DNA of 64,000 bases from Schmidtea polychroa. Lineage: Eukaryota. Positions 698-57,271 of this stretch are shown piece by piece. Under the pieces are notes generated by a model. It did no database searches, was not told the origin of the DNA, and saw nothing but the letters and a program-made list of their open reading frames with translations. The stretch is from the NCBI GenBank assembly GCA_044892525.1, contig CM097885.1, positions 28,274,001 through 28,338,000 of the forward strand, given 5' to 3'. Made by a program: the position numbers and the translations under genes. The first letter of the stretch is position 1; each line of letters begins with the position of its first letter.

Positions 698-35614
<34,917 letters not shown>

Positions 35615-41649: not shown

Positions 41650-42401
41650 TTATATTTTAATCAAAGGACATTCCATTAAAGAGCTAAATCGATACTTACG
41701 CATGTTTCTATAAAAATTATCAAAACAAAGAGACACATCATTATTCATACTTTCAATTGTAGAGCTGAAATTATTGATAATATCCGTGGCATTTTGAGGA
41801 CGTAGTCTAATAGTGAAGTATCTATTTTTTAGGCAGGAGAATATTTCTTCGATGGGATTCAATTGCGGGCTATAAGGGGGCAGATAAACATGATCAACAT
41901 TATTGTTTTCAAACCACGTAGCAACCTCTCGTGTCTTGTGAAACTTTAAATTATCCATTAGAATGACATTATCAGGAGAAAAATAGCCTAAATTTTTACA
42001 TTCTATCAAAAACTCTAAAAAACAGACTACCATTATATGGACCTTCGACTAATTTAATATACAGAAATTTTTCGTTTGAAATTATCGACAATAAACTAAT
42101 ATTTCTTCCTCTGTTTGTTGGAACAGTTATTGCAGCTGGAGTATTAACTGGGGAATATCCATAATTGGGGACCGTATGCAAATTAAACCCGGTCTCATCC
42201 AGATATAAAATGGCATTATTTCTTATATTTCTGAATTTCAAAGCAAATATTTTTCTTTGCGCAATCAATTCAGGAGATTCTACTTTAATTGGCCTTTTCT
42301 GAAGTCTTTTCCTCGTTAAATTAAGTTTTTTAAAATAGAGAGAAACAGTGGGTTGGCTTATATTAATATTCTCAGTTTCTGAAAAATTAGCAATCCCTGT
42401 T
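41650..42401 (-). pseudogene. Tc1/IS630-family DD34E transposase, catalytic part (interrupted)
   Basis: ILYLDETGFNL ... VILMDNLKFHK ... LPPYSPQLNPIE, with 34 residues between the second D and E. Frameshift near 42020. The N-terminus lies beyond the 14.5 kb insertion. Confidence 0.9.
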
Positions 42402-42744
42402 AGTAGGGAGTTAGTGGCCCGCGGCAGCAATAGGGGGGGGGGGTAAAAAATGTTGCAAACTTTTGATTGCATAACTTTTTCCGTAGACATTTTTTGATTA
42501 CATAATTGTTGCCGTAATGCCCAATGTTTTCTGGGATTTTAAATACAAATTTTTTTTTTTTTTTTTTTTTTTTCAATAAACAAGCCAAGGATAAATATTA
42601 TTTGGGTGGGTCTCCTTGGTCCTGAGAATTTCAATAGAAAAAGGTAGTCTTCAATAAAAAAGCATGGATTTTTCACACTATAGTGAGGGGATCTTCTTGG
42701 TCATGAGAATTTCAATAGAAAAGGTGGTTTACATTAAAAAACGC

Positions 42745-43400
42745 ATAGTAAATTTTTAAAATAAAGTAAATTATGGGTCTAAAATTTAAAAATAAAGTAA
42801 ATGATGGGTCTAAAAATTTAAGTAAATCAAGGTTCAGATTTATTTTTGAAATAAAGTAAATTATGGTCTAAATAAGTAAATTATGGGCTAAGATTTTTCA
42901 ATTAAAGTAAATAATGGTTCTAAAAAATTAAATTACAGTAAATTATGGTCCAAATTTTTAAATTAAAGTAAATTATGGTTCTTAAAAATTAAATTAAAGT
43001 AAATTATGGTTCTTAAAAATTAAATTAAAGTAAATTATGGTCAAAATTTTTGAATTACAGTCCAAAAATTTAAATTAAAGTAAATTATGATCCAAATTTT
43101 TAAATTAAAGTAAATAATGGTTCTAAAAAATTAAATTAAAGTAAATAATGGTCCAAATATTTTAAATTACAGTAAATAATGGTTCTAAAAATTAAATTAC
43201 AGTAAATAATGGTCAAAAATTTTAAAATTAAAGTAAATTATGGTTCTAAAAATTAAATTAAAGTTAATTAAGGTCCAAATTTTAAAATTAAATAATCAAT
43301 GGTAAAAAAAAATTTAAATTAAAGTTAAATAAGTAAATTAAAGTAATAATTTTTAAATAAGTAAATTAAAGTAATGTAATAAGTAAATTAAAGTAAGATT
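42745..43400. repeat. Subterminal ~30-bp tandem repeat array, left arm (mirror ~55940-56590)
   Basis: Degenerate unit AAATTAAAGTAAATTATGGT(T/C)C(T/A)AAA.. repeated many times. Confidence 0.85.
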
Positions 43401-43582
43401 TTTAAATTTATTAACAAAAATAGAAGGTGTTTGAGAATTGAAATTTTTTAATGGAAATTTTAATGAATTATTTTTTAAGTAATTTTTAATAGAAATTTTT
43501 ATGAATAATTTTCAATGGTAATTTTTAATGGAAATTTTAATAGAATAATTTTTAAGATAATTTTTAATGAAAATTTTTATGA

Positions 43583-43668
<86 letters not shown>

Positions 43669-43855
43669 TAATATTAATAATATATCAACCAAATACTATA
43701 CAACACATAAAAAATTAACTAAACACATAAAAATAACTAGACACATAACAAAACATATAAACATTAACTAAACACATAAAAATGAACTAGACACATAACA
43801 AACATAAAAATTTACCAAATAACAAATGTAAAGATATAAAATTTATTCAATAAAA

Positions 43856-46800
43856 TTAGTCCTCATCGGACAAAATAACGTCATCGATATCGATGTCATC
43901 TTCTCCAAAATCTTCATTTAATTCTTCCTCATCTTCTCCATCATTTTCTCCAACATTTTCTGAAACATTTTCTGCAACAATTTCTCCAACATTTTCTCCA
44001 ATATTTAATTCACTTAATCTTACATGCCCATATGCAAGACTAGTATTTTGCCCCACCCAAACCCTTTTGTCATCTTTGTTAGTTAGTGCTATTTTTGTGT
44101 TTTTAATTGTAAAAATTTGATGATTTTTGCTTGTTATTTTAGTCTGAGGAACCGAAAAAATCTGGTTAGTGTTATAACAATCCAGGTATGACTGATGTTT
44201 TATGTCACTACCTTTCAATGTTACACCTTTAGCCTTTTTTGTTTCCTCATCACCCAACAAGCTATAACATTTAGGTCTAAGAAAAACCCACTCCTTATAT
44301 TTAAGACCTTTATTCTCGTCTTTGAACTTTCCAATGACTGAATCAAGGTTCTTACTATATAAGGAATGACAACTATTGTAATTGGAAGTATCCAATAAAT
44401 TATCTCGAACCATTGCAGGTAAAAGAACCTCAAGTTTGCAGTTAATGACTTCGAGGAAAAAAGAATCTGTATCACCTGCAACGATATTAATTTTACAATT
44501 AAACTCATTGCGAAATGATTCCAGATCCTTATATTGCAATTCATACATTCTAAGTTTAGATAGATCAAGTACAGATTGACCAATGTAACTCGGTCTATCT
44601 AAACATATAGAATCGGAATTCAATAGTGCTGCAATTAAATTATCTGCTATTTTAATAGATTTTTTAAAAGTCGGTTTTGACGAATATTTAACTAATTTAC
44701 CGGCAGTTGTACAAAGACGAAGATTCATTCTTCTCTTTAAATTTTCAACTGTTTTGCCGTATAAACTATTATTTAGCAATTTATAATAATTTTTATCTAA
44801 GCTATTTACGCTTTTTGATCTTAATTCGGTATTTGTATCTATATATTTTTTAAAAATTGGTGATTGCTTAAATCTTACACCCCTATTTACACGTGTTACT
44901 TTAACACCAAGTTCCAAATATAATTTTAATAATCTCCAATGAATAACATAATTAGATTTTGGAAGATGAGTTAATAATAATTTTTCAACCTTAGACCCAG
45001 CAGGTTTCATTTTTTCAGCAGCTACAGGGAAATCATCCAACTTATCATGAAGCTCAGAAGGAATTACAAGATCAACTTCAAGTGTGTATCCATAAGACAA
45101 AGATTCAAGATTTAAATTCCTACATTCATCCATTATTTTATCAAATCCATCAAGAACCCAACAAAATTCGCCACAAGGTAATGATTGACTTAAAGCCCAG
45201 CCATAAAGATTATTAATATCTATATATAGTAACTCAGTGTTCTCGTCGGTTTTTACGTAATGCTTATTCACAAAAGTAAGACCGCCTCTTATTCCACCCT
45301 CATAAAAGCTAAACATTTCGTTTTCAGTTATGAGTTCAATTGGTTCATTTAAAGACATTAATGCAGAAGACCAAGACATGCCTGGAATTCCGAAATAATT
45401 CAATGGTTCCAATCTATTGTGAGCAATGGATTTCAACCGAAACTGATGAAAGAAATCAGCCAAAAGAAAACAATCAAGTTTTAGGTAGATCATCATATAA
45501 TCTAATAAAGTTACGCAATTAGTTTCTACCCAAATCTCCTGAGCTTTTTCATACTCAAGCTCAGTGACACCCTCCCAGATTGGTGGTAATTCATAAGTAG
45601 TTTGGAGAATATCTAAAGAAGTGGCGAAATTATAAGGGAAGATTCCTTTTTCACTTACTATGGTGCCAGAAAAAGCAGAATTAGTAAAAGGCAAAGAATT
45701 CAAAGTTTTGACTGCTTTAGCCAAAGAATCATTGACAAATTGATACGAATCAATGAATCTTAGGCTAATTTTACCTAAATGAGCAATCAAAGATATAAAT
45801 TTTTCCGTAGTTATTGGGATGCACCCTAAATTCCAATTTTTAAATTTATTTAATCCATATTTAAGTATATGGTGCATATCGTATCCCTTCAAGTTGTGAA
45901 ATACGATAGGCAAAATTTTATTTATTTTCCTATTTACGTTACATGTGCTACAAGCTGCACCCAAGTATTTCCCCGTAAAATGATCGTGATCTCTAACAGG
46001 ATCGACGATAGATTTCATACAAAGATAACAAACAGATGCACTAACAAATTGACGTTGTTCAATTTTTGTTAATTTCATCATAGGTTTCCTACCCATTTTA
46101 TAATAAAAAGGAAGAACCTTATTTAATGCTATATCCTCTATAGCACTTAAAAAACTCTCGACGCAATCTAAACCTATGAACTGCTGATAAGATTTAGACC
46201 CGTCAAAGTTATTTACAAGTAAAAGACCAGCAGATATTGGCATGTGTCGTTGGAAATGATCATTATCAGAAGGTAAAATAGCCTCAAAATCTGCATAAAC
46301 TACAAAAGGAGGAGTTACTGTTTTCGACCAGTCAGTAAACTGTAATAATTTATTTTGAGGGAAGGTGTAAAGAGTTGTTCCTAATTGATTACGTTTACAT
46401 AATATTTCATGTTTTTCTAGTGCGTGTTTATTATTAAACCCATTCAAACACCGATGGTACCATAATGAACGTATGCGTGTAGGACAACTAGTGTTGATAT
46501 GACAATTCATTAACTTATTTAAATTACTTATAGCAACGTAATGGAAATTGTTTCCTTTATTTAATAATAGTAAATTAATTACAGTTCCATTTAAAACTTT
46601 GGAACGATGTATAATATCTAAATGTGGGTGTTTTAATACGTAATTATCTATTAATTGTTTGTTATTGTCATAAGAAAAAACGTTAATTATTAAGCCTGGA
46701 TTTTTGGCCTCGAATTTTCTAATATCTTTTAATTTCATGGGTAAGTCCAATGGATTATATATTAATTCAGATAAATTATAACTGGATGTCCTATTTCTAG

Positions 46801-47437
46801 CATAACTACTAACCTCATCATATTTTAAAATAGCTAAAATGCTATATAAAAAACATGAATCATCGGTGTTTTTTATATTAATTAAACAATATTTATTTTT
46901 TAGATAAGTAGGTGTTTCAATGAAACTCCTACCACTTAATCTACTTAGCCTACTTATTTTTGTTATGGTGAAATGTATTTCAGTGATATTTTTTATATTC
47001 CAACTGCTTCCTAACTCAGTAATATTAGTAATTTTCTCATTTAATTCCTTAATGCCTTCATCAAAAAATGATGCAGTTAAAGGCTTTGCATAATTTGAGA
47101 TATTATTAACCTTTATTTCCCCGTCTTTTTCAAATTCGATTGTTATTCCGAATTGAATTTTGACGGAGCCTAATTCGTTAATAATATCTCGTAATTTTTT
47201 TATTAGTTGTTCAGGAAATATTATTTCTTTTATATTTAAGTCGCTTGTATTTAAGCTTAATATTTGATGGGTACCTCTTAGATCTTTTTGTATTATTGGA
47301 ACATTTCCACCTATTTGTATTATATTTAATCCATCCCAAGAGTCAAGGGAAATATTATCTAATCCAACCTGGGATTCAACAACCAATCCATCATGGGATT
47401 CGACAACCAATCCATCATTGGATTCCACAAAAGGCAA
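43856..47437 (-). CDS. polB: Protein-primed family B DNA polymerase (Polinton/Maverick pPolB), left copy
   Basis: Exonuclease motifs VYADFE, FHNLKGYD, YLKLD. Polymerase motifs YIDINNLYG, KLLNNSLYGK, AGDTDS. Endonuclease VII-like insert CYLC..DHDHFTGKYLGAACSTCN. The listed start is TTG, so the true start is probably upstream. Confidence 0.93.
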   Translation of the reverse strand: MPFVESNDGLVVESHDGLVVESQVGLDNISLDSWDGLNIIQIGGNVPIIQKDLRGTHQILSLNTSDLNIKEIIFPEQLIKKLRDIINELGSVKIQFGITIEFEKDGEIKVNNISNYAKPLTASFFDEGIKELNEKITNITELGSSWNIKNITEIHFTITKISRLSRLSGRSFIETPTYLKNKYCLINIKNTDDSCFLYSILAILKYDEVSSYARNRTSSYNLSELIYNPLDLPMKLKDIRKFEAKNPGLIINVFSYDNNKQLIDNYVLKHPHLDIIHRSKVLNGTVINLLLLNKGNNFHYVAISNLNKLMNCHINTSCPTRIRSLWYHRCLNGFNNKHALEKHEILCKRNQLGTTLYTFPQNKLLQFTDWSKTVTPPFVVYADFEAILPSDNDHFQRHMPISAGLLLVNNFDGSKSYQQFIGLDCVESFLSAIEDIALNKVLPFYYKMGRKPMMKLTKIEQRQFVSASVCYLCMKSIVDPVRDHDHFTGKYLGAACSTCNVNRKINKILPIVFHNLKGYDMHHILKYGLNKFKNWNLGCIPITTEKFISLIAHLGKISLRFIDSYQFVNDSLAKAVKTLNSLPFTNSAFSGTIVSEKGIFPYNFATSLDILQTTYELPPIWEGVTELEYEKAQEIWVETNCVTLLDYMMIYLKLDCFLLADFFHQFRLKSIAHNRLEPLNYFGIPGMSWSSALMSLNEPIELITENEMFSFYEGGIRGGLTFVNKHYVKTDENTELLYIDINNLYGWALSQSLPCGEFCWVLDGFDKIMDECRNLNLESLSYGYTLEVDLVIPSELHDKLDDFPVAAEKMKPAGSKVEKLLLTHLPKSNYVIHWRLLKLYLELGVKVTRVNRGVRFKQSPIFKKYIDTNTELRSKSVNSLDKNYYKLLNNSLYGKTVENLKRRMNLRLCTTAGKLVKYSSKPTFKKSIKIADNLIAALLNSDSICLDRPSYIGQSVLDLSKLRMYELQYKDLESFRNEFNCKINIVAGDTDSFFLEVINCKLEVLLPAMVRDNLLDTSNYNSCHSLYSKNLDSVIGKFKDENKGLKYKEWVFLRPKCYSLLGDEETKKAKGVTLKGSDIKHQSYLDCYNTNQIFSVPQTKITSKNHQIFTIKNTKIALTNKDDKRVWVGQNTSLAYGHVRLSELNIGENVGEIVAENVSENVGENDGEDEEELNEDFGEDDIDIDDVILSDED

Positions 47438-47479
47438 TCCGACCTGGGATTCAAAAGAAGAAGTATCTAATTTAATTTT

Positions 47480-48197
47480 TTAATTTTTATTATTTTTTTC
47501 TATAGTTGAGGGTCTTTTAAAAACACTATCTTTTTTAAAATTAAACCTATCTAAATGATTTTTATGTTTATTATAAAAAACGCTATATGTTACGGGGTCA
47601 CTAGTCTTACATACGGGACATATAAAATAAGTTTTATTATAATATTTTTTCGTATAATAATTCTCCATTATAGAATGGCAATTATTATCATGTTCTTTCG
47701 ATGAACAATAATTTGGGTAAAGTATACCTATAAAATAAAAATTTAATAAAAAAAATATAATTTAAATGAAATATTTTAGTAAATGTTTACGCAAAAATTT
47801 GCAAATTATTATTATTTTACAAATTTTATTTACTAAAAAATAAAAATTTACTAAATTAAAAATATTAACATTTACTTAAATAAAAAATTATATTAAATTT
47901 CCTTTAAATTATAAAAAGTAATCAATACTTACATTGTAAATTTTCATTTCGATTTATTGACACATTGACATAATTTTTTTCTTTATTCGTATTACCTAAA
48001 TTATTAATTAATTAAATCAATAAATTAAAAATTATGTTTACTTTTTCTTTTCAAATTTCCTTTAATCTTAGATTTTAAATTGTCTTCATTAATATTATCT
48101 AAATTAATTAATAAATTAATTAATAAATAAATTAAAATTTACCAAATTTCTGAATTTTTTCTCGGACATTCATAACGTTTTCTATTAAAGAATTCAT
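47480..48197 (-). CDS. 4-exon leader ORF (140 aa, C2H2-like Zn finger), left copy
   Basis: Mirror of 51173-51890: exons 48197-48143, 48098-48042, 47995-47933, 47727-47480. Confidence 0.7.
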
Positions 48198-48699
48198 TTT
48201 TAAAGGTTAACTATTTGTTAAATGTGACTAATGATTGATTATTGTTTATAGATTATTATTGTTTATAGATTATTATTGTTCATAGGAACAAATTCTAACC
48301 AATCAAAATCAAGGAAGGGTAGGAAAAATTAATTTATTTTAAAACACATTTTGACGCTAAAGTTGACTTATTTAACATTTTCATAATAATTTAATAAAAA
48401 TAATGTGATGAACACACAAAGTAATATCATTTTTCATCAAATTGCAAAACAGTAATAACGTTTTCATAAAATTGTAACAAAGTAATAACATATTTCAGAT
48501 AAATTTTCAACAGTTGTAAAATATTTATCAAATTGTAACTAAAATAATAAAAATATTGCAACAAAGTAATAAAATAATAATGGTAATTAAGACAAATCAA
48601 TACATTATTTCGAAGACGGACAACAAATTAAAAAGAATATTGTAACTAAAATAATAAAAATATTGCAACAAAGTAATAAAATAATACAACATTTTAAAC

Positions 48700-49180
48700 T
48701 CTAGATTAATCCATTTTATAGAAAATTAAATTTTATCTATATAATATATGAATAAATATCCAAGGAAATTACGTTAACGTATAATAAATACAAATTTATC
48801 GTAAAAACATGTGTGTATTACACACAAAACAAGATACATAATTTCTAATCAATCCATTTTATAGAAAATTAAATTTTATCTATATATTATATGAATAAAA
48901 TCCTAAGAAAATTACGTTAACTGTATGAAAAATACAAATTTATCATAAAAACATGTGTGTATTACACACAACATACGAGACATAATTTTTAATCAAGCTA
49001 TTTTATAGAAAATTAAATTTTATCTATATAATATATGAATAAAAATCCAAGAAAATTACGTTAACCGCGCGAAAAACTACAAATTTATTGTAAAAACATG
49101 TGTGCATTACACACAAAGCATCAAACTGAAATTGTAATTGCGCCATGTTGTAGAGAATTAAATTCTGCCTATACATGGTT
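48700..49180. repeat. ~144-bp tandem repeat (3+ copies), left arm (mirror ~50190-50670)
   Basis: Units begin ~48711, 48854, 48998 and partially 49142. Full units contain GTTAAC and TGTGTG(T/C)ATTACACACA dyads. Confidence 0.85.
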
Positions 49181-49231
49181 ACACTTAAATCTCGATCAGA
49201 CATGTGAAAAGAGACATAAAAGATAAAAAAC

Positions 49232-50138
49232 AGTAGAGTAGTATGATGTGGGCCCGCCCGGCCAGGAGCCCGCTCGGCCACATATACCCCCTCCCCCCCG
49301 TGTGTAAAATAATGTTAATAATAATATTTATATATCAGTATATAGATTTTGCACTGGGCTTTAAAATAAGTGTTTGATTAATAAATTCGGATGATGGAAA
49401 CATTACTTTTGGGAAGAAAAAAAGTAGGTCACCGCTGGACCAATTAATTTAAAAAAATTACGTAATAGTTCTAAAAATATTAGGCATCGTTCTAAAAATA
49501 TTAGGCATTGATTACGTAATAGTTCTAAAAATATTAGGCATCGTTCTAAAAATATTTGGCATCGTTCTAAAATTATGACGTAATCGTTCTAAAAATATTT
49601 GGCATCGTTCTAAAAGTATGATGTAATCATTCTAAAAATAATAGACATCGTTCTAAAAATATTTGGCATCATTCTAAAATATTAGACATCATTCTAAAAA
49701 TATTAGGCATCGTTCTAAAAATATTTGGCATCATTCTAAAATATTAGACATCATTCTAAAAATGTGATGAGTCATTGTCTTTGTTCTAAAAATGTGATGA
49801 GTCATCGTATGATAAAAATCTATATCTCATTAGAAAGTTCTTGCACAGAGCTTTAAAATAAGCTATCGATCAATATAATATGTTGGCGGGAACAATAATT
49901 TTTGGGATGAAAAAAAGTAGGTCCCCGCTGGATCACTTAATTTAAAAAAAATTACGTAATAGTTCTAAAAATATTAGGCATCGTTCTAAAAATATTAGTC
50001 ATTGATTACGTAATAGTTCTAAAAATATTAGGCATCGTTCTAAAAAAAAAAAATAAAATTTTTTCCCGGGGGGGGGGAGGGGGTATATGTGATCTGGAGG
50101 GGACATGGCCGGGAGGGGACACATCATACTACTCTACT
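49232..50138. mobile_element. Central 907-bp mini-element with Maverick-like termini (palindrome pivot)
   Basis: AGTAGAGTAGTATGATGTG ... CACATCATACTACTCTACT. Imperfect GC-rich TIRs extend to ~49299/50068. The interior has a duplicated ~230-bp block and 21-bp repeats. Confidence 0.65.
49455..49807. repeat. ~21-bp tandem array CATCGTTCTAAAAATATTAGG
   Basis: Head-to-tail degenerate units with interspersed TTACGTAA and TGAGTCA motifs. A second short block lies at 49950-50045. Confidence 0.9.
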
Positions 50139-51059
50139 GTTTTTTATCTTTTATGTCTCTTTTCACATGTCTGATCGAGATTTAAGTGTAACCATGTATA
50201 GGCAGAATTTAATTCTCTACAACATGGCGCAATTACAATTTCAGTTTGATGCTTTGTGTGTAATGCACACATGTTTTTACAATAAATTTGTAGTTTTTCG
50301 CGCGGTTAACGTAATTTTCTTGGATTTTTATTCATATATTATATAGATAAAATTTAATTTTCTATAAAATAGCTTGATTAAAAATTATGTCTCGTATGTT
50401 GTGTGTAATACACACATGTTTTTATGATAAATTTGTATTTTTCATACAGTTAACGTAATTTTCTTAGGATTTTATTCATATAATATATAGATAAAATTTA
50501 ATTTTCTATAAAATGGATTGATTAGAAATTATGTATCTTGTTTTGTGTGTAATACACACATGTTTTTACGATAAATTTGTATTTATTATACGTTAACGTA
50601 ATTTCCTTGGATATTTATTCATATATTATATAGATAAAATTTAATTTTCTATAAAATGGATTAATCTAGAGTTTAAAATGTTGTATTATTTTATTACTTT
50701 GTTGCAATATTTTTATTATTTTAGTTACAATATTCTTTTTAATTTGTTGTCCGTCTTCGAAATAATGTATTGATTTGTCTTAATTACCATTATTATTTTA
50801 TTACTTTGTTGCAATATTTTTATTATTTTAGTTACAATTTGATAAATATTTTACAACTGTTGAAAATTTATCTGAAATATGTTATTACTTTGTTACAATT
50901 TTATGAAAACGTTATTACTGTTTTGCAATTTGATGAAAAATGATATTACTTTGTGTGTTCATCACATTATTTTTATTAAATTATTATGAAAATGTTAAAT
51001 AAGTCAACTTTAGCGTCAAAATGTGTTTTAAAATAAATTAATTTTTCCTACCCTTCCTT

Positions 51060-51172
51060 GATTTTGATTGGTTAGAATTTGTTCCTATGAACAATAATAA
51101 TCTATAAACAATAATAATCTATAAACAATAATCAATCATTAGTCACATTTAACAAATAGTTAACCTTTAAAA
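51060..51172 (+). promoter_or_regulatory. Candidate promoter of the leader/pPolB transcript (mirror 48198-48310)
   Basis: Reverse CCAAT (GATTGG), three AAACAATAAT repeats and an initiator-like TCATTAGTC ~35 nt before ATG 51173. AATAAA at 55523 lies just after the pPolB stop. Confidence 0.35.
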
Positions 51173-51890
51173 ATGAATTCTTTAATAGAAAACGTTATGA
51201 ATGTCCGAGAAAAAATTCAGAAATTTGGTAAATTTTAATTTATTTATTAATTAATTTATTAATTAATTTAGATAATATTAATGAAGACAATTTAAAATCT
51301 AAGATTAAAGGAAATTTGAAAAGAAAAAGTAAACATAATTTTTAATTTATTGATTTAATTAATTAATAATTTAGGTAATACGAATAAAGAAAAAAATTAT
51401 GTCAATGTGTCAATAAATCGAAATGAAAATTTACAATGTAAGTATTGATTACTTTTTATAATTTAAAGGAAATTTAATATAATTTTTTATTTAAGTAAAT
51501 GTTAATATTTTTAATTTAGTAAATTTTTATTTTTTAGTAAATAAAATTTGTAAAATAATAATAATTTGCAAATTTTTGCGTAAACATTTACTAAAATATT
51601 TCATTTAAATTATATTTTTTTTATTAAATTTTTATTTTATAGGTATACTTTACCCAAATTATTGTTCATCGAAAGAACATGATAATAATTGCCATTCTAT
51701 AATGGAGAATTATTATACGAAAAAATATTATAATAAAACTTATTTTATATGTCCCGTATGTAAGACTAGTGACCCCGTAACATATAGCGTTTTTTATAAT
51801 AAACATAAAAATCATTTAGATAGGTTTAATTTTAAAAAAGATAGTGTTTTTAAAAGACCCTCAACTATAGAAAAAAATAATAAAAATTAA
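51173..51890 (+). CDS. 4-exon leader ORF (140 aa, C2H2-like Zn finger), right copy
   Basis: Exons 51173-51227, 51272-51328, 51375-51437, 51643-51890. Three GT-AG phase-1 introns (44, 46, 205 nt) give an open frame MNSLIENVMNVREKIQKFDNINEDNLK...CPVCKTSDPVTYSVFYNKHKNH...KRPSTIEKNNKN*. Confidence 0.7.
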
Positions 51891-51932
51891 AAAATTAAAT
51901 TAGATACTTCTTCTTTTGAATCCCAGGTCGGA

Positions 51933-54900
51933 TTGCCTTTTGTGGAATCCAATGATGGATTGGTTGTCGAATCCCATGATGGATTGGTTGTTGAATCCCA
52001 GGTTGGATTAGATAATATTTCCCTTGACTCTTGGGATGGATTAAATATAATACAAATAGGTGGAAATGTTCCAATAATACAAAAAGATCTAAGAGGTACC
52101 CATCAAATATTAAGCTTAAATACAAGCGACTTAAATATAAAAGAAATAATATTTCCTGAACAACTAATAAAAAAATTACGAGATATTATTAACGAATTAG
52201 GCTCCGTCAAAATTCAATTCGGAATAACAATCGAATTTGAAAAAGACGGGGAAATAAAGGTTAATAATATCTCAAATTATGCAAAGCCTTTAACTGCATC
52301 ATTTTTTGATGAAGGCATTAAGGAATTAAATGAGAAAATTACTAATATTACTGAGTTAGGAAGCAGTTGGAATATAAAAAATATCACTGAAATACATTTC
52401 ACCATAACAAAAATAAGTAGGCTAAGTAGATTAAGTGGTAGGAGTTTCATTGAAACACCTACTTATCTAAAAAATAAATATTGTTTAATTAATATAAAAA
52501 ACACCGATGATTCATGTTTTTTATATAGCATTTTAGCTATTTTAAAATATGATGAGGTTAGTAGTTATGCTAGAAATAGGACATCCAGTTATAATTTATC
52601 TGAATTAATATATAATCCATTGGACTTACCCATGAAATTAAAAGATATTAGAAAATTCGAGGCCAAAAATCCAGGCTTAATAATTAACGTTTTTTCTTAT
52701 GACAATAACAAACAATTAATAGATAATTACGTATTAAAACACCCACATTTAGATATTATACATCGTTCCAAAGTTTTAAATGGAACTGTAATTAATTTAC
52801 TATTATTAAATAAAGGAAACAATTTCCATTACGTTGCTATAAGTAATTTAAATAAGTTAATGAATTGTCATATCAACACTAGTTGTCCTACACGCATACG
52901 TTCATTATGGTACCATCGGTGTTTGAATGGGTTTAATAATAAACACGCACTAGAAAAACATGAAATATTATGTAAACGTAATCAATTAGGAACAACTCTT
53001 TACACCTTCCCTCAAAATAAATTATTACAGTTTACTGACTGGTCGAAAACAGTAACTCCTCCTTTTGTAGTTTATGCAGATTTTGAGGCTATTTTACCTT
53101 CTGATAATGATCATTTCCAACGACACATGCCAATATCTGCTGGTCTTTTACTTGTAAATAACTTTGACGGGTCTAAATCTTATCAGCAGTTCATAGGTTT
53201 AGATTGCGTCGAGAGTTTTTTAAGTGCTATAGAGGATATAGCATTAAATAAGGTTCTTCCTTTTTATTATAAAATGGGTAGGAAACCTATGATGAAATTA
53301 ACAAAAATTGAACAACGTCAATTTGTTAGTGCATCTGTTTGTTATCTTTGTATGAAATCTATCGTCGATCCTGTTAGAGATCACGATCATTTTACGGGGA
53401 AATACTTGGGTGCAGCTTGTAGCACATGTAACGTAAATAGGAAAATAAATAAAATTTTGCCTATCGTATTTCACAACTTGAAGGGATACGATATGCACCA
53501 TATACTTAAATATGGATTAAATAAATTTAAAAATTGGAATTTAGGGTGCATCCCAATAACTACGGAAAAATTTATATCTTTGATTGCTCATTTAGGTAAA
53601 ATTAGCCTAAGATTCATTGATTCGTATCAATTTGTCAATGATTCTTTGGCTAAAGCAGTCAAAACTTTGAATTCTTTGCCTTTTACTAATTCTGCTTTTT
53701 CTGGCACCATAGTAAGTGAAAAAGGAATCTTCCCTTATAATTTCGCCACTTCTTTAGATATTCTCCAAACTACTTATGAATTACCACCAATCTGGGAGGG
53801 TGTCACTGAGCTTGAGTATGAAAAAGCTCAGGAGATTTGGGTAGAAACTAATTGCGTAACTTTATTAGATTATATGATGATCTACCTAAAACTTGATTGT
53901 TTTCTTTTGGCTGATTTCTTTCATCAGTTTCGGTTGAAATCCATTGCTCACAATAGATTGGAACCATTGAATTATTTCGGAATTCCAGGCATGTCTTGGT
54001 CTTCTGCATTAATGTCTTTAAATGAACCAATTGAACTCATAACTGAAAACGAAATGTTTAGCTTTTATGAGGGTGGAATAAGAGGCGGTCTTACTTTTGT
54101 GAATAAGCATTACGTAAAAACCGACGAGAACACTGAGTTACTATATATAGATATTAATAATCTTTATGGCTGGGCTTTAAGTCAATCATTACCTTGTGGC
54201 GAATTTTGTTGGGTTCTTGATGGATTTGATAAAATAATGGATGAATGTAGGAATTTAAATCTTGAATCTTTGTCTTATGGATACACACTTGAAGTTGATC
54301 TTGTAATTCCTTCTGAGCTTCATGATAAGTTGGATGATTTCCCTGTAGCTGCTGAAAAAATGAAACCTGCTGGGTCTAAGGTTGAAAAATTATTATTAAC
54401 TCATCTTCCAAAATCTAATTATGTTATTCATTGGAGATTATTAAAATTATATTTGGAACTTGGTGTTAAAGTAACACGTGTAAATAGGGGTGTAAGATTT
54501 AAGCAATCACCAATTTTTAAAAAATATATAGATACAAATACCGAATTAAGATCAAAAAGCGTAAATAGCTTAGATAAAAATTATTATAAATTGCTAAATA
54601 ATAGTTTATACGGCAAAACAGTTGAAAATTTAAAGAGAAGAATGAATCTTCGTCTTTGTACAACTGCCGGTAAATTAGTTAAATATTCGTCAAAACCGAC
54701 TTTTAAAAAATCTATTAAAATAGCAGATAATTTAATTGCAGCACTATTGAATTCCGATTCTATATGTTTAGATAGACCGAGTTACATTGGTCAATCTGTA
54801 CTTGATCTATCTAAACTTAGAATGTATGAATTGCAATATAAGGATCTGGAATCATTTCGCAATGAGTTTAATTGTAAAATTAATATCGTTGCAGGTGATA

Positions 54901-55514
54901 CAGATTCTTTTTTCCTCGAAGTCATTAACTGCAAACTTGAGGTTCTTTTACCTGCAATGGTTCGAGATAATTTATTGGATACTTCCAATTACAATAGTTG
55001 TCATTCCTTATATAGTAAGAACCTTGATTCAGTCATTGGAAAGTTCAAAGACGAGAATAAAGGTCTTAAATATAAGGAGTGGGTTTTTCTTAGACCTAAA
55101 TGTTATAGCTTGTTGGGTGATGAGGAAACAAAAAAGGCTAAAGGTGTAACATTGAAAGGTAGTGACATAAAACATCAGTCATACCTGGATTGTTATAACA
55201 CTAACCAGATTTTTTCGGTTCCTCAGACTAAAATAACAAGCAAAAATCATCAAATTTTTACAATTAAAAACACAAAAATAGCACTAACTAACAAAGATGA
55301 CAAAAGGGTTTGGGTGGGGCAAAATACTAGTCTTGCATATGGGCATGTAAGATTAAGTGAATTAAATATTGGAGAAAATGTTGGAGAAATTGTTGCAGAA
55401 AATGTTTCAGAAAATGTTGGAGAAAATGATGGAGAAGATGAGGAAGAATTAAATGAAGATTTTGGAGAAGATGACATCGATATCGATGACGTTATTTTGT
55501 CCGATGAGGACTAA
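51933..55514 (+). CDS. polB: Protein-primed family B DNA polymerase (Polinton/Maverick pPolB), right copy
   Basis: Translation identical to 43856-47437 with the same motifs. The frame is open back to 51891. Confidence 0.93.
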   Translation: MPFVESNDGLVVESHDGLVVESQVGLDNISLDSWDGLNIIQIGGNVPIIQKDLRGTHQILSLNTSDLNIKEIIFPEQLIKKLRDIINELGSVKIQFGITIEFEKDGEIKVNNISNYAKPLTASFFDEGIKELNEKITNITELGSSWNIKNITEIHFTITKISRLSRLSGRSFIETPTYLKNKYCLINIKNTDDSCFLYSILAILKYDEVSSYARNRTSSYNLSELIYNPLDLPMKLKDIRKFEAKNPGLIINVFSYDNNKQLIDNYVLKHPHLDIIHRSKVLNGTVINLLLLNKGNNFHYVAISNLNKLMNCHINTSCPTRIRSLWYHRCLNGFNNKHALEKHEILCKRNQLGTTLYTFPQNKLLQFTDWSKTVTPPFVVYADFEAILPSDNDHFQRHMPISAGLLLVNNFDGSKSYQQFIGLDCVESFLSAIEDIALNKVLPFYYKMGRKPMMKLTKIEQRQFVSASVCYLCMKSIVDPVRDHDHFTGKYLGAACSTCNVNRKINKILPIVFHNLKGYDMHHILKYGLNKFKNWNLGCIPITTEKFISLIAHLGKISLRFIDSYQFVNDSLAKAVKTLNSLPFTNSAFSGTIVSEKGIFPYNFATSLDILQTTYELPPIWEGVTELEYEKAQEIWVETNCVTLLDYMMIYLKLDCFLLADFFHQFRLKSIAHNRLEPLNYFGIPGMSWSSALMSLNEPIELITENEMFSFYEGGIRGGLTFVNKHYVKTDENTELLYIDINNLYGWALSQSLPCGEFCWVLDGFDKIMDECRNLNLESLSYGYTLEVDLVIPSELHDKLDDFPVAAEKMKPAGSKVEKLLLTHLPKSNYVIHWRLLKLYLELGVKVTRVNRGVRFKQSPIFKKYIDTNTELRSKSVNSLDKNYYKLLNNSLYGKTVENLKRRMNLRLCTTAGKLVKYSSKPTFKKSIKIADNLIAALLNSDSICLDRPSYIGQSVLDLSKLRMYELQYKDLESFRNEFNCKINIVAGDTDSFFLEVINCKLEVLLPAMVRDNLLDTSNYNSCHSLYSKNLDSVIGKFKDENKGLKYKEWVFLRPKCYSLLGDEETKKAKGVTLKGSDIKHQSYLDCYNTNQIFSVPQTKITSKNHQIFTIKNTKIALTNKDDKRVWVGQNTSLAYGHVRLSELNIGENVGEIVAENVSENVGENDGEDEEELNEDFGEDDIDIDDVILSDED

Positions 55515-55701
55515 TTTTATTGAATAAATTTTATATCTTTACATTTGTTATTTGGTAAATTTTTATGTTTGTTATGTGTCTAGTTCATTTTTATGTGTTT
55601 AGTTAATGTTTATATGTTTTGTTATGTGTCTAGTTATTTTTATGTGTTTAGTTAATTTTTTATGTGTTGTATAGTATTTGGTTGATATATTATTAATATT
55701 A

Positions 55702-55754
<53 letters not shown>

Positions 55755-56934
55755 TCATAAAAATTTTCATTAAAAATTATCTTAAAAATTATTCTATTAA
55801 AATTTCCATTAAAAATTACCATTGAAAATTATTCATAAAAATTTCTATTAAAAATTACTTAAAAAATAATTCATTAAAATTTCCATTAAAAAATTTCAAT
55901 TCTCAAACACCTTCTATTTTTGTTAATAAATTTAAAAATCTTACTTTAATTTACTTATTACATTACTTTAATTTACTTATTTAAAAATTATTACTTTAAT
56001 TTACTTATTTAACTTTAATTTAAACTTTTTTTTACCATTGATTATTTAATTTTAAAATTTGGACCTTAATTAACTTTAATTTAATTTTTAGAACCATAAT
56101 TTACTTTAATTTTAAAATTTTTGACCATTATTTACTGTAATTTAATTTTTAGAACCATTATTTACTGTAATTTAAAATATTTGGACCATTATTTACTTTA
56201 ATTTAATTTTTTAGAACCATTATTTACTTTAATTTAAAAATTTGGATCATAATTTACTTTAATTTAAATTTTTGGACTGTAATTCAAAAATTTTGACCAT
56301 AATTTACTTTAATTTAATTTTTAAGAACCATAATTTACTTTAATTTAATTTTTAAGAACCATAATTTACTTTAATTTAAAAATTTGGACCATAATTTACT
56401 GTAATTTAATTTTTTAGAACCATTATTTACTTTAATTGAAAAATCTTAGCCCATAATTTACTTATTTAGACCATAATTTACTTTATTTCAAAAATAAATC
56501 TGAACCTTGATTTACTTAAATTTTTAGACCCATCATTTACTTTATTTTTAAATTTTAGACCCATAATTTACTTTATTTTAAAAATTTACTATGCGTTTTT
56601 TAATGTAAACCACCTTTTCTATTGAAATTCTCATGACCAAGAAGATCCCCTCACTATAGTGTGAAAAATCCATGCTTTTTTATTGAAGACTACCTTTTTC
56701 TATTGAAATTCTCAGGACCAAGGAGACCCATCCAAATAATATTTATCCTTGGCTTGTTTATTGAAAAAAAAAAAAAAAAAAAAAAATTTGTATTTAAAAT
56801 CCCAGAAAACATTGGGCATTACGGCAACAATTATGTAATCAAAAAATGGCTACGGAAAAAGTTATGCAATCAAAAGTTTGCAACATTTTTTACCCCCCCC
56901 CCCTATTGCTGCCGCGGGCCACTAACTCCCTACT

Positions 56935-57271
56935 CCTGTTTGGTTAAAGGAATTATCGTGTTGAATGCATTTCCCAACCTTAAGAAATTTTTCTCTAATG
57001 CCAAGAGCTGCTCTTCCAGGTTTCTTGAACTGAATATTTTTTATAAGATCTTCATCGTCAGCCTGTTCAATTTTAGTTAGCCATTTATATTAAGACTTAT
57101 TCGAAATCTTCAACACTCTCGCCATTTTTGCGATGTCGTCACCTTCAGACTTCATATCCTTCAAAAGTTCAAGAATTTTTTGCGTGATTATATTCTTCTT
57201 TTCCTGGGATTATTTGATTGTTCTTCTAAGCCGAGGATATTCGTAAATGCATTTTTGTGTTCAGGACTCAT
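56935..57271 (-). pseudogene. Tc1/IS630 transposase N-terminal HTH part (other half of 41650-42401)
   Basis: MSPEHKNAF.../KNIITQKILELLKDMKSEGDDIAKMARVLKISNKS*YKWL...KKPGR...HDNSFNQTG joins in frame to IANFSETENINISQPTVS once the insertion and one TSD copy are removed. Confidence 0.85.

Follow-up and report, generated by a model that had tools for sequence, protein, structure and literature searches.

A palindromic, polymerase-only Polinton derivative that forms a mobile family in Schmidtea polychroa and is probably mobilised in trans

How can a Polinton (or Maverick) that consists almost entirely of two mirror-image copies of its polymerase end have entered a chromosome as a unit, and what moves it? 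The question is raised by a 14.5-kb element at positions 42402–56934 of a 64,000-nucleotide stretch of Schmidtea polychroa DNA (GenBank assembly GCA_044892525.1, contig CM097885.1, positions 28,274,001 to 28,338,000 of the forward strand; hereafter the window), part of C1 in an AT-rich genome of 781 Mb. An annotation made earlier from the letters of the window (the original prediction) had described a fold-back element that integrated as a unit, an architecture that the palindrome, the target-site duplication (TSD) and an empty site all bear out. We find that the element is the polymerase-side end of a resident Polinton family (family C), present as an inverted duplicate around a captured gene-less module, and that it inserts as a unit with a 6-bp TSD. 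It is probably a non-autonomous, snap-back derivative of family C that is now a mobile family of its own and is mobilised in trans.

Comparison of the window with itself by BLAST gave a 6,900-column inverted match, 99.3% identical, between 42402–49299 (the left arm) and 56934–50071 (the right arm, 50071–56934). The arms make up 13.76 of the 14.53 kb, so that the palindrome extends over nearly the whole length of the element. Outside the central 80 bases they differ by three substitutions, one 1-base gap and a change in the length of an AAT run; the mismatches start 19 bases inside an inner unit (49232–50138), which contains an unpaired loop (49300–50070). The left arm starts with the terminus AGTAGGGAGTTAGTGGCCCGCGGC and the right arm finishes in CCACTAACTCCCTACT, giving the ends AGTAG.../...CTACT, and both flanks carry an exact CCTGTT (42396–42401 and 56935–56940, plus strand), all as originally described. 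Each arm has subterminal 31/61-bp tandem repeats (42749–43332 on the left and 56005–56588 on the right) and a polymerase frame that points outwards (43856–47479 on the minus strand, 51891–55514 on the plus strand). The two frames are identical in DNA and are the only frames of more than 200 amino acids in the element. The absence of integrase, ATPase, protease and capsid genes, likewise claimed earlier, held up: 13 query proteins from three Polinton families of the same genome, covering these functions as well as penton-like proteins and TBP, gave no tblastn match in the element or in three other palindromes (L031, L032 and L129), whereas the same queries did match control loci. Rfam had no match within the element.

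The element interrupts a host transposase of the Pfam DDE_3 (IS630/Tc1) type, whose downstream part lies at 41650–42401 and whose upstream 49 codons lie at 56941–57087 (both on the minus strand, in the target and outside the element). Removal of the element and one TSD joins 49 codons of the transposase to a further 135 in a single open frame of 184, in agreement with the claim that the frame rejoins there; the transposase copy is itself broken further on, since its continuation at 41650–42048 lies in a different frame. An empty site with a single CCTGTT (joint 42395–56935, six shared letters) is present in contigs of three public runs (X1, X5 and X8) from three studies. Because the transposase is a repeat these contigs may derive from other copies of it, and the single pre-insertion CCTGTT is still seen in them.

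The window copy belongs to a large family. Its terminal 24-mer occurs 243 times in forward and 246 times in reverse orientation genome-wide, as against 0 for a control, and all 12 end pairs of which both ends were retrieved have their own matching 6-bp duplication, different from those of the others. Independent insertions with different TSDs, which the original prediction had called for, are therefore present, and the palindrome is not a single rearrangement. Of the 100 ends that head the list, 86 fall into 43 pairs; all but one of these pairs span 6.9–15.0 kb, and most span 13–14.7 kb. A polymerase 24-mer has 1,244 genome occurrences, and the first 100 exact matches on C1 include 31 pairs that diverge and none that converges, with 38 matches standing singly. 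Extrapolation from the first stretch of C1 puts the family at roughly 200–400 copies, which is an estimate and not a count. An older member, L129 (C1:319400–327400), is 91–95% identical to the window copy and has a variant terminus; subterminal-type 31-bp repeats occupy its centre in place of the module found in the window copy. Two size classes were considered as autonomous forms and rejected: the 13.3-kb class, since L031, the one copy examined, is likewise a polymerase palindrome, and a pair of ends 26 kb apart at C1:97.90–97.93 Mb (L127), whose interior is a nested family A-type Polinton. At C1:197686511–197714929 four ends in the order + + − −, with spacings of 7,272 and 7,263, look like a palindrome inserted in the centre of another.

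The protein that the palindrome encodes is, on the evidence of its structure model, a protein-primed family B polymerase (pPolB). The model (pLDDT 82) has phi29 polymerase as its best match among solved structures (E 2.8e-19) and bidnavirus-like and adintovirus PolB as its best viral matches; close homologues carry PF03175, the window protein itself gave no PF03175 match, and a PDB sequence search with it found nothing. The long frame at 51891–55514 contains vOTU-like Cys/His motifs, an exonuclease, an HNH-like insert and polymerase motifs. The motifs D..CFLYS and FHY may be the catalytic Cys and His motifs of a vOTU; residues 45–165 of the model form a folded alpha/beta domain. A domain scheme in which pPolB is fused to a terminal protein and a vOTU is given in 10.1101/2024.03.18.585575.

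The 1193-amino-acid reading frame of the original prediction is present in both arms, but it is only part of a predicted spliced gene. In the right arm three predicted leader mini-exons of 55, 57 and 63 nt, all phase 1 (51173–51437 on the plus strand, comprising 51173–51227, 51272–51328 and 51375–51437), lie downstream of two TATAAAC boxes (51103 and 51120) and upstream of the main exon (51643–55514, plus strand). The left arm mirrors this arrangement on the minus strand, with leader exons at 47933–48197 (48143–48197, 48042–48098 and 47933–47995, derived from the right-arm coordinates), boxes at 48250 and 48267 and a main exon at 43856–47727 with its predicted acceptor at 47727. No RNA run was listed among those that contain words of the element, and contigs of runs presumed to be RNA did not show splicing. 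In both arms of the window copy the frame is broken near the N-terminus, closing 81 codons past the acceptor (near 47480 on the left). Among 30 arms chosen by best protein match, and hence a biased sample, the frame closes after 78–81 codons in seven, from four insertions including that in the window, and the leader and acceptor are absent from three, as they are from L031. The idea of a minimal, self-replicating element is thus not supported for the window copy.

The parent of the palindromes was found at a single polymerase match, at C1:6.71 Mb, which is part of a canonical Polinton (family C; L128, L130 and L131). Its gene set comprises protease, capsid-like, two penton-like, integrase, A32 ATPase and TBP genes adjoining the polymerase, the capsid and penton labels being given by likeness and position, with no Pfam match. 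Its polymerase is 95.6–98.7% identical in amino acids to that of the palindromes, with one stop in the sampled copy; the outer 5.3 kb of the palindrome matches its polymerase end, and the subterminal repeats of the palindrome are common to its terminal inverted repeat (77–82% matches to L130 and L131). Family C is an autonomous-type relative in the same genome that could supply integrase, a candidate helper of the kind the original prediction had sought, with termini that are similar rather than the same. A family C capsid marker has 307 matches genome-wide and lies 4–8 kb upstream of 16 of 37 single polymerase matches; the exact marker is inside none of the 43 palindrome end pairs. Two other families were rejected as parents: family A (L033/L034, with Pfam DJR capsid, rve integrase and A32 ATPase), whose polymerase is only 28% identical, and family B (L125 and L126), which at 57–63% identity is a sister instead. 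AGTAG ends are found in all three integrase-type or capsid-bearing families seen (A, B and C). Two further observations concern family C itself: its integrase is split by a short GT-AG intron-like stretch and has a weak chromodomain match (L128:6674–7834), and four family C TBP markers stand in tandem at C1:213.93–213.95 Mb with a spacing of about 4.0 kb.

The centre of the palindrome has a different source. A gene-less palindromic module at 48336–51034 (outer boundary approximate) occupies the place of the start of the parent's capsid half; the centre is a captured element. The module carries 144-bp repeats (48711–49117 and 50253–50670) and belongs to a repeat family also found without polymerase. 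The inner unit at 49232–50138 has Polinton-type ends of its own, AGTAGAGTAGTATGATG...CATCATACTACTCTACT; its inverted ends are imperfect, and it contains 21-bp repeats as well as a direct repeat. The hexamers on either side of it, AAAAAC and GTTTTT, are inverted copies of each other and not a direct duplication. In the first 67 Mb of C1, 19 of 25 matches to the inner terminus fall inside polymerase pairs. The sequence just outside the inner unit occurs 1,350 times in the genome; 12 of its 55 matches in the same 67 Mb are inside polymerase pairs, two are near singles, and 41 are away from the listed polymerase matches, often as short inverted pairs. This flank is within 6 kb of none of 16 canonical family C copies, and the identical centre module, together with an identical deletion junction, recurs at unrelated loci with different target duplications. 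A comparable gene-less element stands in the window itself: a 1,816-bp Polinton-type element at 10378–12193, with the duplication CAGGGA and the ends TGTAGGG.../...CCCTACT, shares motifs with the palindrome centre. Folding of the centre gave a closed stem, in a calculation made without a shuffled control. Because not all palindromes carry the module (L129 being the example), more than one origin is likely.

The arms of a palindrome resemble each other more than they resemble those of any other copy. Across 12 elements the arms of one copy are separated by a median of 1.5 substitutions per 6.5 kb, and those of different copies by 13. Twenty alleles occur in both arms of one copy and nowhere else, another 20 occur in one arm only, and no allele is confined to two arms that belong to different copies. 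The nearest relative of an arm is its partner in 20 of 24 cases and tied in two, the remaining two (L029/L030) being an alignment-edge artefact, with 131 alignment differences contributed by the edges and five mismatches in 6,224 by BLAST. The arms of L031 are 99.8% identical to each other and 97.9% to the window copy, and those of L032 are 99.9% identical to each other and 93.6–95.1% to the window copy. Several copies have an identical deletion or frame break in both arms, and L032 has a one-sided deletion as well. The closer similarity within than between copies means that the symmetry has been renewed, and the single-arm changes show that homogenisation is not continuous in the chromosome. 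It presumably takes place during mobilisation.

We consider it probable, on these grounds, that the palindromes are non-autonomous snap-back derivatives of family C that move in trans. They are closely similar to an autonomous family of the same genome and have made many insertions with no integrase of their own, which suggests that integrase is borrowed in trans. That functions are supplied in trans is favoured because lineages with an early-closed frame or with no leader have still spread; the polymerase would then be mostly a passenger, perhaps helpful and dispensable in cis. In the mechanism that we propose, a family C copy first received a gene-less module immediately upstream of its polymerase promoter. 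During protein-primed strand-displacement replication the displaced strand would have folded on the inverted arms of the module, and a copy of the polymerase half would have overwritten the capsid/integrase half. Each later round could pass through a panhandle whose stem is almost the whole genome, with changes transferred from arm to arm, while the integrase of family C, plus polymerase and capsid where needed, would be provided in trans. Panhandle and homology-restoring models of this kind have been discussed for adenovirus and PRD1 (PMC11886824).

Several points weigh against this account. Twenty of the 30 arms keep the leader and a 1,289-codon frame from the acceptor, which leaves room for a polymerase that is useful in cis, and the ratio of non-synonymous to synonymous substitution rates (dN/dS) of the polymerase is 0.10–0.17 between palindrome lineages. 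The family C terminus AGTAGGTAGATAGTAGC, seen in one sampled copy, is similar to and not the same as the palindrome's AGTAGGGAGTTAGTGG, so that the sampled copy is at most a candidate for the helper subfamily. The exact inner terminus is present in only 12 of 31 polymerase pairs and the centre of L129 is different, so that there may have been several origins, some of them not seeded by the module. None of the reads or contigs examined covers the element from end to end, extrachromosomal forms were not observed, and PMC11886824 describes panhandles as still lacking direct evidence.

The open frames and low dN/dS could instead mean that the palindromes are a selected satellite, or an incipient genome segment, kept for their polymerase and complemented by palindromes of the capsid/integrase half, with a two-part genome emerging. 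Mirror images of the other half do exist: at three loci (C1:67.85, C1:216.08 and C2:2.39 Mb) capsid markers of family C are paired in inverted orientation, together with TBP markers in symmetric pairs, and the first and last of these loci have a common spacing of 4,543 bp, as against 5,567 in the canonical copy. At the first, a 4.4-kb stretch is 99.4% self-complementary (L132, C1:67.84–67.86 Mb, with L134), with perfect arms of 2,168 bp and a 55-nt loop inside a 328-codon frame that has no assigned identity. Such mirrors are rarer than the polymerase palindromes, with four capsid pairs among 100 listed matches versus 31 polymerase pairs among 100, and at C1:67.85 Mb neither ends nor target duplications were found, the left probe (L133) having no match. 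Nor does selection discriminate: comparison with the canonical copy gives the same dN/dS as comparison among palindromes, and the differences occur in patches along the gene, a pattern like that left by recombination with canonical copies. Any selection on the palindromes therefore cannot be told apart from selection in the parent. Lineages with broken or leaderless polymerases have nevertheless inserted at several sites, and about 300 canonical copies remain. We therefore regard a selected satellite as a possible but unlikely explanation. Its extreme form, in which the Polinton is splitting into two complementary, mutually dependent mobile mirror segments and the genome preserves a fossil of a transition from one piece to a multipartite state of the bidnavirus or Vesanto kind, is a speculative suggestion to which we give little credence. 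Possible further mirrors of the capsid half lie at C1:67.73–67.74 and C1:174.75 Mb.

It is improbable that the palindromes are immobile and that each was made at its present site, through break-induced copying or gene conversion between the ends of an integrated canonical Polinton. Formation in place would likewise yield one duplication pair per locus and near-identical arms, and the capsid-side fold-backs, with their differing break points (MCP spacings of 4,073, 1,500 and 2,869), and the variable centres of the palindromes fit it. The recurrence of one centre module and deletion junction at unrelated loci with different TSDs, the lack of the module flank beside the 16 canonical copies and the lack of the exact capsid marker within the 43 end pairs speak against it.

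An assembly artefact, produced by chimeric long reads that fold back or by the collapse of repeats, would be in keeping with the missing spanning read. Near-perfect hairpins can come from chimeric reads, which counts in favour of an artefact at L132 with its short loop, and an artefact is less well excluded for the capsid-half mirrors than for the polymerase palindromes. For the latter it is very improbable indeed, given that all 12 loci have direct 6-bp duplications and that runs from three different studies show the empty site, and given the asymmetric 0.77-kb loop, the arm-specific substitutions, the one-sided deletion of L032 and the presence of words from the centre and the arm junction at 0.80–0.99 in four runs, all from a single study among whose samples the source may be. 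A chance head-to-head meeting of two truncated Polintons, conceivable in a genome crowded with Polintons where nesting occurs (L127), is effectively refuted by the single TSD pair that encloses the entire unit at all 12 loci, by the 31 divergent versus 0 convergent pairs and by arms that are each other's nearest relatives.

A snap-back derivative of family C shares with canonical Polintons its AG...CT ends, 6-bp TSD (within the usual 5–8 bp), pPolB and subterminal repeats, and its length is within the 13–25 kb that, along with terminal inverted repeats of 100–1500 bp, helps to define these elements (10.1101/2023.08.22.554363). It differs in having an inverted repeat of about 6.9 kb, two polymerase genes, a captured centre and no integrase, ATPase, protease or capsids. 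The gene-less derivative at 10378–12193 has AG-type ends, a 6-bp TSD and no integrase, as the palindrome does, and lacks the polymerase. Ten loci with pPolB and terminal inverted repeats and no integrase are reported from C. elegans, with no palindromes or mobile family described there (10.1101/2024.01.15.575659, in the main text of which "palindrom" does not occur). Snap-back or copy-back defective viral genomes are similar in being near full-length palindromes derived from one end of the parent with functions lost; they are described for RNA viruses and are non-coding (PMC13506859), whereas the palindrome is DNA, carries its gene twice, is integrated with TSDs and is inherited in hundreds of copies. 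Adenovirus and PRD1 share protein-primed replication and a displaced strand able to fold on inverted repeats and restore homology (PMC11886824, which cites Wang et al. 1991). There a free virus forms the stem from its short terminal repeat, whereas the stem of the palindrome would be about 95% of a genome whose product integrates. Bidnaviruses and the Drosophila Vesanto virus have a related polymerase fold and carry the polymerase on a segment of its own bounded by inverted repeats, with other functions elsewhere. Their segments are non-integrating, 3.3–5.8 kb long and have one gene copy each (10.1101/2020.10.16.342956), whereas the palindrome is double-stranded and integrated with TSDs. It is an unusual, mobile, non-autonomous Polinton, comparable to a snap-back defective genome in integrated form, and does not qualify as an autonomous Polinton. 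We found no description of a polymerase-only palindromic Polinton in the full-text literature, a search whose coverage did not extend to Repbase and the founding Polinton papers. Non-autonomous Polintons are reportedly mentioned in Repbase, and a prior entry is possible.

To our knowledge, the replication and movement of Polintons have never been demonstrated experimentally. The hundreds of very young palindromes are a record of Polinton copying: from one insertion to the next, changes in one arm are transferred to the other, and the fold-back point was apparently set by a nested inverted repeat, as the panhandle model predicts. The palindromes are also an inherited equivalent, in integrated DNA, of snap-back defective genomes. 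Counts of markers make them about as numerous as their parent, and the capsid/integrase mirrors make the origin of segmented pPolB viruses testable. Polintons are piRNA targets in a planarian (PMC8532177). Searches that ask for all core genes (as in 10.1101/2023.08.22.554363) and short-read assemblies would miss palindromes, which may thus have been overlooked elsewhere: none of 90 viral and metagenome loci has the polymerase on both strands, in a set of which only 22 are at least 8 kb long and in which short-read contigs would collapse palindromes. One metagenome contig (L053:2926–3267) has a dual-specificity phosphatase gene adjoining a related polymerase.

Two minor observations concern the other families. 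At C1:165.72–165.73 Mb (L033) family A capsid genes are paired in inverted orientation at a distance of 13.3 kb, and a polymerase and a truncated integrase lie in the left half. A 589-codon frame, presumably that of a hAT transposase, which it resembles, interrupts the family B polymerase at L125:1148–2917.

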